Source: a virus
Strand: one strand, 5' to 3'
IMG/VR virus record: IMGVR_UViG_3300027881_000011
Coordinates: 3,783 to 67,782 of that record
Length of the DNA: 64,000 nt
The notes under the pieces were generated by a model. The model was not told the DNA's origin and made no database searches. It worked only from the letters and a program-made list of their open reading frames with translations. Every line of letters starts with the position of its first letter. The stretch's first letter is position 1. The position numbers and the translations under genes are program-made. This document shows, piece after piece, positions 48,874 through 51,558 of this stretch.

Positions 48874-49007
48874 TGCGTGAGGGCCGGAATCCAACCGACT
48901 TCTATATTTCTTTATCCACACATATCCTTGGAGATCATAAGGACGGTGGAGCGGACTCGTATATCCGTAGACGTTAGCCCGGATTGCCTGTCCTGAGTCA
49001 CTCACGC
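48874..49007 (-). ncRNA. tRNA-like structured ncRNA (acceptor stem + T-arm + large insertion)
   Basis: GCGTGAG/CTCACGC terminal stem, GTCGG-TTGGATT-CCGGC T-arm, internal hairpins; just downstream of a promoter. Confidence 0.55.
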
Positions 49008-49027
49008 GAGCTGTAACTACCTATGGC

Positions 49028-49055
49028 AGTTTACCACCCAGTGCTGAAAAGTCAA
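49028..49055 (-). promoter_or_regulatory. Promoter TTGACT-16-(TGn)TAAACT embedded in an inverted repeat
   Basis: Same TTGACT -35 as the other leftward promoters; extended -10. Confidence 0.6.
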
Positions 49056-49069
49056 CACTGGGTGGTAAA
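49030..49069. repeat. 14-bp perfect inverted repeat after the Ro60 stop
   Basis: TTTACCACCCAGTG ... CACTGGGTGGTAAA. Confidence 0.85.
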
Positions 49070-49074
49070 GGATG

Positions 49075-50700
49075 TTATCTACTGAACTCCGCGATTACGG
49101 GGAGTACGTTCGCATCGAAGCCGACCACATCCAACATGCCAGCATCGTTGGGATCAGCAATGCTGAACCCGGTTGAAGTCATACCTACAACCACGAGTTT
49201 CGCGTTCGGGTTGTGGGTCTGTCGGTATGCCTGCAACGCCTGAGCAGGTTTGATATTGCCTGCCCACGTTTCATTGTCCGTCAGGACCACGAAGGTGTCC
49301 ACCATGATGTTATTTGCCGAGGCATACAACATCGGAACAGCACAGTCAGTCGCGCCGAAGGTGCGATTGGATACCTTCTTCATCACGTCATTGATCGCAT
49401 CGTTCGAGCCGATACCAAGATCAATGAAGCCAGCAACGGCAGTTTCCCCACCATGACTTGCGTGGTAACGAGAACCACCAGTGAAGCCGTGGATGAAATG
49501 CACCGGCTCAGTACGAGCGATGATCATTGCCATCGCACCAGCTGCTTCAGCGGCAGTGATGTTGCTATCCATCTGTGCCCAACTCATCGAGCTGGAAACA
49601 TCGACACCAAGCATGAATGCCTTACCGGTTGGCTCGACATTCGCGAACGACTTTGTGAAGCCATTATCCAGTGCAGCGATAATGCTGGTGTCTGGATTCC
49701 ACTTCAGCTTGCCACGGAAGCCCTCACCAGCCGCGTAGTTTTTCGAGGCCAGCAAGAAGTGCATCGGGTGAACCTTCGAGCGAGTGATCTGCTCGTCATC
49801 AGTGATGCGCTCACGTACCAGCTTCGACTCTGCTGACATGGGCTTGATGGTGCCGTTGGCAGTCAGCTTACCCAGCTGACGAACGGTTGCCATCAGCGGC
49901 ATCTTCGACAGCAGCTGCTTGTTTACAGCCGGATCGTTCAGCCACTCAGTCGGCAGCATTTCCCAGCTCAGGTTGAAGTCGCGAACGATCTTCGAGTTGG
50001 GTGCCATGTCCTGTGCCTGAGCGTAGCCACCGTAGATTCGCGGCAGCTTGTTCTCATGCACCAGACCCTGAATCTTTTCAGGGTTCACGGTTGCTTCAAA
50101 CATCGCACCATGCAGCTCACTGGTCGTGACCGGGTGAGCCAGACGCAGGATGTCACGATGTGACCAACCATCACGCTGACGGTACTTCAACAGCTGGTAT
50201 GCCAGCTTGTCGGCGTCCTTGTCGTTGTACCACTTCTGGAACGCACGTTTGGTTGCGCGACCCCAACCACCGAAGGCTTCCATGTACTGAGCGAAATGGA
50301 ACAGGTGAGTACCAATGCGAGCCACCTCTGGCAATACGCCAAAGGCCAGCTTGCGGGTCTGCTCATTGCCCAACTTCGCAGCGGCAGCGAGAACAAACAG
50401 AGCAGCGTCGTTCTTATGCGCCCGACTTGCCTGTGAGATTTCGACAACCCGATTGACGACACGAAGACCATCCTCTTTAATCAGTTGAATGGTTGCGTTC
50501 GCGTTGTCCTTGGTCAGGTCACGCTCGCTGACGTAGAAGGTGCCACCTTCAGTGCCAAGAATGAGAAAGCGGTCCAGCCGATCCCAGTCAGACACAGCAT
50601 GGACGAATCCACCTTCTGCGTTCTGAACTTCATCGGTACGACCGGGAGTGCGCTCACGCTGGGGCGTGGCACGAGTAGATACATGCTTTGAATAGTCCAT
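49075..50700 (-). CDS. rsr: Ro60/Rsr TROVE-vWA RNA-binding protein
   Basis: LDRFLILGTEGGTFY, GGWGR, KYRQRDGWSHRDILRLAHP, VHP, MIDAS DVSSS, TDCAVPM, FVVLTDNETW, IADPNDAGMLDVVGFD. Confidence 0.96.
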   Translation of the reverse strand: MDYSKHVSTRATPQRERTPGRTDEVQNAEGGFVHAVSDWDRLDRFLILGTEGGTFYVSERDLTKDNANATIQLIKEDGLRVVNRVVEISQASRAHKNDAALFVLAAAAKLGNEQTRKLAFGVLPEVARIGTHLFHFAQYMEAFGGWGRATKRAFQKWYNDKDADKLAYQLLKYRQRDGWSHRDILRLAHPVTTSELHGAMFEATVNPEKIQGLVHENKLPRIYGGYAQAQDMAPNSKIVRDFNLSWEMLPTEWLNDPAVNKQLLSKMPLMATVRQLGKLTANGTIKPMSAESKLVRERITDDEQITRSKVHPMHFLLASKNYAAGEGFRGKLKWNPDTSIIAALDNGFTKSFANVEPTGKAFMLGVDVSSSMSWAQMDSNITAAEAAGAMAMIIARTEPVHFIHGFTGGSRYHASHGGETAVAGFIDLGIGSNDAINDVMKKVSNRTFGATDCAVPMLYASANNIMVDTFVVLTDNETWAGNIKPAQALQAYRQTHNPNAKLVVVGMTSTGFSIADPNDAGMLDVVGFDANVLPVIAEFSR

Positions 50701-50713
50701 CTTTTTCCCCTGT

Positions 50714-50738
50714 TACGGCTCGTCCATCACGAGCATGA
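50714..50738 (-). promoter_or_regulatory. Ro-site-like hairpin in the rsr 5' UTR beside the RBS
   Basis: CATGCTCGT-GATGG-ACGAGCCG then TAAC-AGGGG-AAAAAG-ATG. Confidence 0.55.
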
Positions 50739-50743
50739 ATAAA

Positions 50744-50891
50744 TTTCGAGCATGTTATTGGCGAAGGAGAGTCCCGAAGGACAGGCGCTCTCCCAGACTG
50801 AGCTATACGTGCCAATGCAGGGCACGCAACTGGATTTGAACCAGTGACCACCTCTTCCGCATAGATAACCTTCAATCCATCCGGCTCGAAA
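50744..50891 (-). ncRNA. yrlA: YrlA-type Y RNA (unit A) with circularly permuted tRNA domain
   Basis: TTTCGAGCCGGA...AACATGCTCGAAA terminal stem; T-arm ACTGG-TTCAAAT-CCAGT, closed acceptor GCGTGCC/GGCACGT, D-arm TAGCTCAGTCTGGGAGAGC. Confidence 0.85.
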
Positions 50892-50897
50892 ACCAAC

Positions 50898-50988
50898 TGA
50901 GAGCGTGTTGTTGCCGTCGAGTAGGCACCCCGATTAAGGGGAAAGCCCTGATTAACAGTCAGGATAATCGACAGACATCCGGCTCTCA
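50898..50988 (-). ncRNA. Y-RNA-like unit B with Asn(GUU) anticodon stem-loop
   Basis: TGAGAGCCGGA...TTATC...AACACGCTCTCA; CCTGA-CTGTTAA-TCAGG. Confidence 0.75.
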
Positions 50989-51001
50989 TTTCAAACTTAA
51001 A

Positions 51002-51107
51002 GTGGACATGTTAATGAAAACGGATCAACCCCTTTCGGAGCTGGCAGGACTCGAACCTGCAATATCTTACGATACTTAACCACGGTAACCGTCTTCGTTC
51101 GGTCCAC
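51002..51107 (-). ncRNA. Y-RNA-like unit C with T-arm and closed acceptor-like hairpin
   Basis: GTGGACCGAA...TTACC...AACATGTCCAC; GCAGG-TTCGAGT-CCTGC; CAGCTCC-GAAA-GGGGTTG. Confidence 0.75.
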
Positions 51108-51115
51108 AAACTAAA

Positions 51116-51194
51116 TGCGAACATGTTATGAGAGAGCGGTGCCTTTCGGCTTTCACATTTCAGATGAGATAACGCTCTTACTCTCCGGTTCGCA
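51116..51194 (-). ncRNA. Y-RNA-like unit D
   Basis: TGCGAACCGGA...TTATC...AACATGTTCGCA; TCAT-CTGAAAT-GTGA and GCC-GAAA-GGC hairpins. Confidence 0.75.
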
Positions 51195-51201
51195 AACCTG
51201 A

Positions 51202-51310
51202 TGGGCGAGAGAGGGCGTGAACCCCCTCACTTCGTCAGCCACCCCTTCCCACCGTTTTACGTATCGTATGAGTTAGCGCACTAACATCCAGTTGCCGAAG
51301 CAACTCGCCC
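51202..51310 (-). ncRNA. tRNA-like ncRNA unit E (no Ro motif)
   Basis: GGGCGAG/CTCGCCC-A acceptor; GGGGG-TTCACGC-CCTCT T-arm; GTTGC-TTCG-GCAAC and GTTAG-TGCG-CTAAC hairpins. Confidence 0.6.
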
Positions 51311-51352
51311 TATTTCTGTTCATTCACGTCGCTCCCTGCAACGTGTAAAAAT

Positions 51353-51453
51353 TGGAGCCGCTGATAAGAATCGAACTTATGATAACCGTGTGGCGTCCGG
51401 CTCGTTACCGAGCTTAAATGTTGCTCACGGTGTGCCCCCTCGGGCACAGCGGC
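51353..51453 (-). ncRNA. Permuted Y RNA in tRNA topology with 3' CCA (unit F)
   Basis: GCCGCTG/CAGCGGC-T-CCA; T-arm ATAAG-TTCGATT-CTTAT; internal AACAT..GCTCG-GTAA-CGAGCCGGA..CACGG-TTATC. Confidence 0.75.
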
Positions 51454-51457
51454 TTAG

Positions 51458-51523
51458 CCTGAGCATGTTAGTAGCGATGGCAATTCAATTTGGATTAGAT
51501 AAGCCACCGGCATCCGGCTCAGG
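51458..51523 (-). ncRNA. Minimal Y-RNA-like unit G
   Basis: CCTGAGCCGGA..GGTGGC-TTATC..GCCATC..AACATGCTCAGG; begins at the predicted transcription start. Confidence 0.75.
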
Positions 51524-51530
51524 GCAAAGG

Positions 51531-51558
51531 ATGATACTCAGGCACTGGCGGAAGTCAA
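51531..51558 (-). promoter_or_regulatory. Promoter of the Y RNA-rsr operon, TTGACT-16-TATCAT
   Basis: Predicted +1 (~51525) coincides with the 5' end of unit G. Confidence 0.7.

Follow-up and report, generated by a model that had tools for sequence, protein, structure and literature searches.

A 64,000-base stretch of the uncultured virus record IMGVR_UViG_3300027881_000011 (positions 3,783 to 67,782 of its 67,782 bases, called the window here; the record is 96% complete by CheckV) carries a Ro60 gene that is preceded on its own strand by an array of small structured RNA units. Most of these units share a two-helix scaffold, referred to in this study as the handle, and differ in what is placed between the handle strands. 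The array probably encodes Y RNA-type RNAs that combine a common Ro60-docking handle with differing pieces of tRNA, at the head of an early phage operon, which would make it a form of the known Ro60/Y RNA (YrlA) system with many, diversified members. A first-pass annotation of this DNA had proposed a Ro60 operon led by an unusually large and diversified set of Y RNA-type RNAs with tRNA parts. That proposal is well supported by the positions of covariance-model matches, the covariation of the handle helices, the match of one unit to YrlA, and the one to three matches found in cultured phages.

The handle and its distribution

Four elements make up the handle, namely a terminal stem, a bulged C beside a G-U or G-C pair, a second helix and the sequence TTAYC; its 5' strand is mostly GCCGGATG and its 3' strand is AACAYG. 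A strict motif scan of both strands of the window (a stem of at least five pairs, CCGRA, TTAYC, AACAYG and a closing stem) found exactly five units, A, B, C, D and G, at the coordinates and with the terminal stems that the first-pass annotation had given them. A covariance model of the kind suggested there as a check, named R1, was built from 30 units (window units G, D, C and B plus 26 from related loci), with the two helices annotated by hand and A-type units deliberately excluded. Searched against both strands of the 64-kb window, R1 gave five matches, the same five units on the shared scaffold (E 2.8e-16 to 1.6e-10), and nothing beyond them up to E=10. Because the seed held no A-type unit, unit A was recovered independently.

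The proposal also depended on covariation across homologous loci, and both helices do covary. In the seed alignment 85% of cells pair, compared with 31-52% when the partners are slid by one to three columns, and the covariation score of 0.543 (0.243 for shuffled alignments) was matched by none of 500 shuffles; 14 of the 18 pairs change on both sides. The model-fitted alignment, which is biased towards structure by construction, has 88% of cells paired and 16 of 18 pairs changed on both sides. As a specificity control, R1 was run on 80 unrelated viral loci (738 kb) with the 5' motif, taken from at least 117 stretches that an exact pattern scan of viral contigs had returned, and gave two matches at E<=0.001. 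The remaining 5'-motif stretches among the control loci were treated as chance matches.

Ro60 proteins 64-78% identical to that of the window were found in nine viral contigs, one genome contig and 12 metagenome contigs, several of them duplicates, and four further metagenome contigs hold a Ro60 clade at 42-43% identity. R1 was searched at E<=0.01 in 21 non-redundant sources including the window (168 kb), and all 53 of its matches lie upstream of Ro60 on the Ro60 strand. The six sources with no match begin inside Ro60 or have 44 nucleotides (nt) of upstream DNA. Twelve distinct arrays were recognized, each with three to five canonical units, the window having the most. The order of the middle units varies. 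Unit G comes first in all 11 arrays that are intact at the 5' end (the twelfth, in related locus L014, is cut there), and the handle unit nearest to Ro60 is A in 11 of the 12; L001 holds an extra permuted-handle RNA between A and the Ro60 leader. Three loci of the 42-43% clade (L023-L025) also have an array upstream of Ro60, at about 1290-1905, with three R1 matches each and five units by eye; here the motif takes the variant form GTCGGAYG...GGTTATC...AACATATC, and the leader handle is replaced by a terminator-like hairpin. Among cultured actinophages, R1 gave two matches in Cashline, two in Cali, where one partial Rfam YrlA match was also found, and one weak match in Beuffert that is far from the gene. 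These small numbers agree with the earlier statement that known loci have only a few Y RNAs.

The region had been described as about 800 bp with no credible open reading frame (ORF). Sense ORFs within the 830 nt upstream of Ro60 reach at most 45 amino acids (aa), the ORFs of ten related arrays are short and inconsistent, with none conserved, and none of the four ORFs that overlap the array has a Pfam match. The gene that follows was borne out as full-length Ro60/Rsr by matches to the Pfam families vWA_Ro60 (7e-58, 195.6 bits, cut-off 27.7) and TROVE (2.3e-40, 139.6 bits, cut-off 23) and by an alignment with Xenopus Ro60 (1yvp, 9.7e-117) that spans residues 18-540. Human RO60 (4.4e-112) and Deinococcus Rsr (1.9e-102) are matched as well, and the phage protein is as close to the Xenopus protein as to the bacterial one. 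The DVSSSM sequence of its metal-ion-dependent adhesion site type aligns with DVSASM of 1yvp, and K, R and H are found at the positions of Xenopus K170, R174 and H187, residues which we take to have functional roles in that protein.

Contents of the units

Between the handle strands, unit A appears to hold a tRNA elbow, unit C a T arm with a closed acceptor stem, units B and D anticodon-type stem-loops (GUU and GAA), and unit G almost nothing. Unit F would be the inverse design, a complete tRNA shape that has free ends and CCA and uses the handle as its anticodon arm. All features are listed in Table 1. Across 47 distinct units from the window and related loci, which include both paralogues and orthologues, the second helix is followed by TTATC (38) or TTACC (9) in every case. 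The Ro60-site motif GNCGAAN0-1G, taken from the available part of PMC4201824, occurs exactly in 3 of the 47 units and in the relaxed form RNCGRAN0-1R in 36. The fold of unit C has a z score of -3.82, and none of 200 shuffles is as stable. Spacers between units measure 5-12 nt and are U/A-rich.

Table 1. Features of the Ro60 locus, in window coordinates
Feature	Position	Strand	Basis
Sigma-70-type promoter-like site TTGACT-16-TATCAT ahead of the array	51531..51558	-	10 of 12 matches, consensus match only
Unit G, minimal Y RNA-type unit: handle and 16-nt loop	51457..51524	-	R1, 47.0 bits (E 1.2e-10)
Unit F, tRNA-shaped RNA with encoded CCA and the handle as anticodon arm	51353..51453	-	Folds and comparison of seven versions
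Hairpin after F, CACGTTGC-AGGGA-GCGACGTG	51325..51345	-	By eye
Unit E, insert of about 107 nt closed by GGGCGAG/CTCGCCC, no handle	51203..51309	-	Fold only
Unit D: handle, hairpin TCAT-CTGAAAT-GTGA (7-nt anticodon-type loop, GAA), GAAA-capped hairpin	51115..51195	-	R1, 67.6 bits
Unit C: handle, GTAA hairpin, T arm GCAGG-TTCGAGT-CCTGC, closed 7-bp acceptor-like hairpin	51000..51109	-	R1, 46.6 bits
Unit B: handle, hairpin TCCTGA-CTGTTAA-TCAGGG, second hairpin	50897..50989	-	R1, 56.6 bits
Unit A, YrlA-type: handle, V hairpin, T arm, closed acceptor stem, D arm, TTCG hairpin	50744..50891	-	R1, 50.7 bits; Rfam YrlA
Leader hairpin CAT-GCTCGT-gatgg-ACGAGC-CG	50716..50737	-	Comparison of 16 leaders
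Ro60 gene (TROVE and vWA), 541 aa	49075..50700	-	Pfam and structure-homologue alignment
16-bp hairpin directly after the Ro60 stop codon	49028..49067	-	Overlaps second promoter-like site
Second promoter-like site TTGACT-16-TAAACT	49055-49028	-	Consensus match
Structured RNA between Ro60 and YqaJ	48875..49007	-	Fold z -4.65, none of 200 shuffles as stable

The first-pass annotation had divided the region into seven RNAs. Units A, B, C, D and G stand, as does F with its permuted handle; E does not, since it has no handle and its fold (z -1.71) is no better than those of shuffles. Unit E gave no R1 match, no Rfam match up to E=10 and no BLAST match in 26 related loci. It is unchanged in contigs of two other seawater runs and is specific to this phage. 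A reading of E as the top half of a tRNA was rejected: no canonical T loop was found, position 58 would be C, and the unit is not conserved. Between E and F lies the small hairpin listed in Table 1, and at the same site L001, L003, L006 and L018 have a hairpin with different arms that are still complementary (judged by eye, not scored).

The hairpins of B and D are placed directly after TTAYC. The loop of B, CTGTTAA, is that of the tRNA-Asn GUU anticodon in three of the four Asn genes that ARAGORN found in unrelated viral contigs, and it caps the hairpins of 8 of the 47 units on five different stems, with a ninth case (unit B of L002) seen by eye. Loops of the form CTNNNAA occur in 13 of the 47 units. 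Other loops of the arrays are likewise found in the unrelated viral tRNA genes: Cys CTGCAAA (2 of 2), Thr(UGU) CTTGTAA (1 of 2) and Ser(UGA) CTTGAAA (1 of 1). The clearest comparison comes from ten orthologous D units whose scaffold is near-constant and whose loops are CTGTTAA in six, CTCTGAAA in two, CTTGAAA in one and CTGAAAT in the window. The conventional tRNA genes of this phage are two divergent tRNA-Tyr(GUA) genes, at 62193-62274 (-) and 62034-62119 (-), and no others were found in the window. They score 52.8 and 36.2 bits with the Rfam tRNA model, and ARAGORN calls just one of them. A search of the whole window against Rfam at gathering thresholds returned only a tRNA at 62037-62119.

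In unit F, a 7-bp acceptor stem is combined with a short D-like hairpin, with a T arm (loop TTCGATT) that abuts the acceptor stem, and with a 3' T followed by CCA; TTATC lies at the position of the tRNA variable loop. The place of the anticodon arm is taken by the handle, closed by a 4-nt GTAA loop and in a permuted order: the 3' strand of the second helix, the AACAYG-type strand, the terminal stem with its tetraloop, the CCGRA strand and the 5' strand of the second helix. Seven distinct F-type versions were compared by anchored extraction and single-sequence folding. All seven have a perfect 7-bp acceptor stem, in five different sequences, together with a discriminator base, CCA and a T arm with a TTCRA loop, and in five of them the four-arm cloverleaf is the minimum-energy fold. 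The versions of L007 and L011 additionally have a 4-bp D stem with a GG-containing loop. Neither ARAGORN nor the Rfam tRNA model calls unit F a tRNA, and it has no 7-nt anticodon loop. The YrlA of M. smegmatis is an RNase P substrate and acquires CCA (available part of PMC4201824), and by analogy F would be a genetically fixed, inverted version of such a CCA-bearing YrlA.

Four related loci (L001 3767-3990, L002 3485-3640, L007 3477-3640 and L011 2014-2200) contain an additional RNA, absent from the window, which has a promoter-like box of its own (TTGACTTCCT...TACAAT). It begins with a permuted handle, AACATG-stem-loop-stem-CCGA...GTTATC, and in L002, L007 and L011 it ends in a terminator-like hairpin with a T run.

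A further copy of the handle core, also permuted, lies in the Ro60 leader. Of the handle elements, this hairpin retains the terminal stem, bulged C and G-U pair, but neither the second helix nor TTAYC. It ends 5 nt ahead of the ribosome-binding GGGG of Ro60 and was found in all 16 leaders examined (15 distinct), with five stem sequences of 6-7 bp, each followed by C-CG. In 13 related loci the Ro60 leader has 94-100% identity across the aligned part. Target mimicry is a known means of translational autoregulation, as with ribosomal proteins such as L1 and S8 and with the threonyl-tRNA synthetase operator. In those cases a copy of the protein's binding site adjoins its own ribosome-binding site, which is the placement of the handle core here. 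However, Ro60 control is a prediction in this case, and the leader keeps the handle core alone. That free Ro60 would bind this hairpin and repress its own translation is, on this analogy, an evenly balanced possibility. No paper on Ro60 autoregulation through a leader mimic was found in the literature searched.

Known Y RNA systems and the genomic setting

Comparison with the YrlA and Y RNA models, another check suggested by the first-pass annotation, had a divided outcome. Unit A matches Rfam YrlA RF02553 below the gathering score (36.4 bits, E 1.2e-5) with its T arm, closed acceptor stem and D arm all aligned, and the A-type units of L001 and L002 score 36.4 and 32.7 bits; the other window units gave no match to RF02553 up to E=10. 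For RF00019 and RF01656 no window unit matched at E<=10, and the G unit of L002 (3402-3471) matched the nematode stem-bulge family RF01656 (ceN72-3_ceN74-2) at 33.7 bits (E 0.0034, gathering score 38). Because the match of A is below threshold, the motif is mostly in its relaxed form, and the RF01656 match is also below threshold, the units were filed as variant Y RNA-type RNAs and not as members of RF02553.

The published comparisons that follow draw on the available parts of the sources cited. The phage array resembles the YrlA/YrlB and Rsr systems of Salmonella, M. smegmatis and mycobacteriophages in that the RNAs lie upstream of Ro60 on the same strand, a placement expected within about 4 kb of Ro60 for RNAs of the YrlA type. 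The stem motif of its units, mostly in the relaxed form, is close to the GNCGAAN0-1G of the YrlA terminal stem. The YrlA order of T arm, closed acceptor stem and D arm is the same in unit A, whereas C has only the T arm and acceptor and B, D and G have none of these. According to 10.1101/312249, YrlA has neither an anticodon loop nor a free CCA end, and separate phage units supply exactly those parts. TTAYC, which is invariant in the phage units, is absent from the Rfam YrlA consensus. The rsr-yrlBA-rtcBA RNA repair operon has a linked RtcB ligase and RtcA cyclase, while the phage locus has neither: the window had been noted to lack rtcB and rtcA, and this extends to the whole 67,782-base record, in which PF01139 and PF01137 had no match although positive controls were detected. 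No TGT gene was found in the record either.

In bacteria and phages, Ro60 is known to be accompanied by one to a few Y RNAs (PMC4201824, PMC12135203, PMC7824862). About two Y RNAs per species are described for Salmonella, M. smegmatis and the Thermus phage phiLo (PMC4201824, 10.1101/312249, PMC12135203), compared with five handle units and one permuted unit in the window; in Deinococcus, four small RNAs lie upstream of rsr and not all of them bind Rsr well. The phiLo locus is comparable in having Y RNA-like genes directly upstream of Ro60 with a CGAA-type motif in a stem-bulge-stem. Its Ro60 binds Yrl1, Yrl2 and PNPase, and the proposed use is capture of host PNPase (PMC12135203). However, phiLo has two such RNAs as opposed to six here, and the available part of that source mentions neither tRNA parts nor anticodon-type loops, a permuted form or a leader site. 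In phage Bas63 a Ro60-like protein counters the ppl defence (PMC11482910). Handle arrays of at least five units with partitioned tRNA parts were not found in the literature searched, and neither were anticodon-loop cargo, a CCA-ended tRNA/Y chimera or a handle in a Ro60 leader.

There is also a resemblance to the eukaryotic Y RNAs and stem-bulge RNAs (RF00019, RF01656), which have a bulged C in the terminal helix like the phage units. UUAUC follows the upper stem in eukaryotic Y RNAs and nematode stem-bulge RNAs, a feature that the phage units share. Eukaryotic Y RNAs, however, belong to another domain of life, and the phage units lack polymerase III features.

Downstream of Ro60 on the same strand lie genes for a YqaJ exonuclease, RecT and SSB, and the array is therefore placed at the head of an early recombination-type operon. 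Upstream, the divergent neighbors are a helicase gene and a gene whose helix-turn-helix match is weak, each of the four Pfam families scoring under its cut-off. The single promoter proposed by the first-pass annotation corresponds to the sole promoter-like site upstream of the array, and in related loci a TTGACT...TATCAT/TATGAT box is seen by eye ahead of the first unit. The hairpin after the Ro60 stop codon and the promoter-like site that overlaps it are an arrangement also visible in ten related loci. The structured RNA between Ro60 and YqaJ has a terminal stem GCGTGAG/CTCACGC and a T-arm-like GTCGG-TTGGATT-CCGGC, no handle and no Rfam match. By eye, related versions with GGTTGGATTCC kept are present in L001, L002, L003, L011, L022 and L026, and L006, L007, L014 and L015 hold a different cassette in its place.

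A small hairpin, GCACTGGTTATCAGTGC, was also seen at 48845-48861 (-), about 10 nt ahead of the ribosome-binding AGGAG of YqaJ; its arms covary, since relatives carry GCACTGGTTGTCAGTGC, GCGCCGGTTGTCGGCG or CCCGGTGGTCGGGG there (by eye). The structural half of the phage contains a single ORF of 3,955 aa at 28771-40638 (+). Near-identical DNA is present in seawater metagenome runs, with identical pieces in contigs of two of the four runs compared. In a scan of genome contigs, one related 7-kb contig was binned with a Desulfuromonadales metagenome-assembled genome, which is too weak a link for naming a host.

Proposed function and other explanations

In the preferred reading, the early operon would run in the order promoter, RNA array, Ro60, YqaJ exonuclease, RecT and SSB. 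A single transcript from 51558-51531 would be processed at the short spacers rich in U and A, with RNase P making the cut at F, and Ro60 would bind and stabilize each unit through its handle. The displayed tRNA parts may then bring Ro60 to host proteins that recognize tRNA, or hold such proteins, and a decoy effect, or the channelling of damaged tRNA into decay, could counter defence by a tRNA-directed nuclease. The role tentatively favored is that the array shields phage translation from nucleases directed at tRNA, anticodon nucleases above all. A PNPase-type tether as in Deinococcus and phiLo would be compatible with such protection and, by analogy, is about equally likely. Anticodon nucleases, whose specificities are taken here as general background, occur in defence systems and as toxins and would be the class for which loop turnover between related phages is expected.

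A more far-reaching version treats the array as a programmable display with swap-in tRNA parts on one handle. The loops (Asn, Phe-like, Cys, Thr, Ser) would turn over against host anticodon nucleases or modification enzymes, F would plug Ro60 into RNase P, the CCA enzyme and perhaps a synthetase or EF-Tu, and Ro60 would regulate itself through its mRNA mimic. Taken as a whole, this combination is speculative and rather unlikely.

It is improbable that the array is instead a cis-acting structured 5' leader of the Ro60 mRNA, in which Ro60 binds repeated sites in its own transcript and controls stability or translation. Such a leader would fit the presence of one promoter-like site with no convincing terminator before Ro60, as well as the handle hairpin beside the ribosome-binding site in every leader examined. 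However, the perfect acceptor stem with encoded CCA kept in all seven versions of F only makes sense if F is cut out. The short, U/A-rich spacers and the wide variation of cargo between units and phages also argue against it, and in Deinococcus, Salmonella and M. smegmatis the Y RNAs encoded ahead of rsr exist as separate molecules (available part of PMC4201824). The tRNA-like content could alternatively be ascribed to decayed or rearranged tRNA genes, the remains of a degenerating phage cluster that came to lie beside Ro60 by chance, and T arms, D arms and anticodon-type loops are indeed found among A, B, C, D and F in a phage that has two real tRNA-Tyr genes elsewhere. This is very hard to credit, as the common part that covaries is a non-tRNA handle, unit G has no tRNA part at all, and the arrangement is kept in 12 distinct arrays and in the distant clade with Ro60 at 43% identity.

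A different question is whether the tRNA parts do anything beyond supporting a tether. The Y RNAs might solely connect Ro60 to host PNPase or another 3'-5' exonuclease in a RYPER-like particle and gate its cavity, in which case the tRNA parts would provide nuclease resistance and the multiplicity of units would provide dosage. RYPER in Deinococcus and the co-purification with Rsr in Salmonella (10.1101/312249) are precedents for this, as are the Ro60-Yrl-PNPase complexes of phiLo (PMC12135203), and a protective role of the folded tRNA domain was suggested by the authors of 10.1101/312249, all as given in the available parts of these sources. Dosage, however, leaves unexplained both the GUU/GAA/UGA loop swaps in orthologous D units and the presence of a CCA-ended, tRNA-shaped unit, and a purely tethering function is considered unlikely. 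Complete swapping of loops on a constant scaffold argues against mere dosage or stabilization and points to anticodon-specific partners. An adaptor or decoy role appears more plausible given that the loops switch between related phages in this way.

Several observations weigh against the preferred reading of handle-borne tRNA parts. Only unit A resembles a curated family, and its 36.4 bits are far under the gathering score of 69. The dominant 5' motif is CGGA as opposed to the published CGAA. Since the 47 units are both paralogues and orthologues, counts over them are not independent events. The F unit of the window has AACATTTAAG where its relatives have AACATG or ACCACG, and its handle may therefore be weakened. 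The loops of anticodon type could also serve as plain U-turns in contacts between RNAs or between RNA and Ro60. Finally, the record holds no RtcB, RtcA or TGT gene, and no nuclease or repair partner adjoins the array.

For the partners of the tRNA-like half of bacterial Y RNAs, this phage family offers a natural dissection series on a constant handle, which comprises an elbow, a T arm with acceptor, defined anticodon arms, a CCA-ended tRNA shape and an empty handle, and which could help to name those partners unit by unit. Two further suggestions from the array are autoregulation of Ro60 through an mRNA mimic and a link of Ro60 particles to anticodon-specific conflicts between phage and host, neither of which was found in the literature searched. 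A marine phage with a row of small RNAs that carry different tRNA pieces on one handle would thus amount to a natural toolkit for the function of Ro60 particles.

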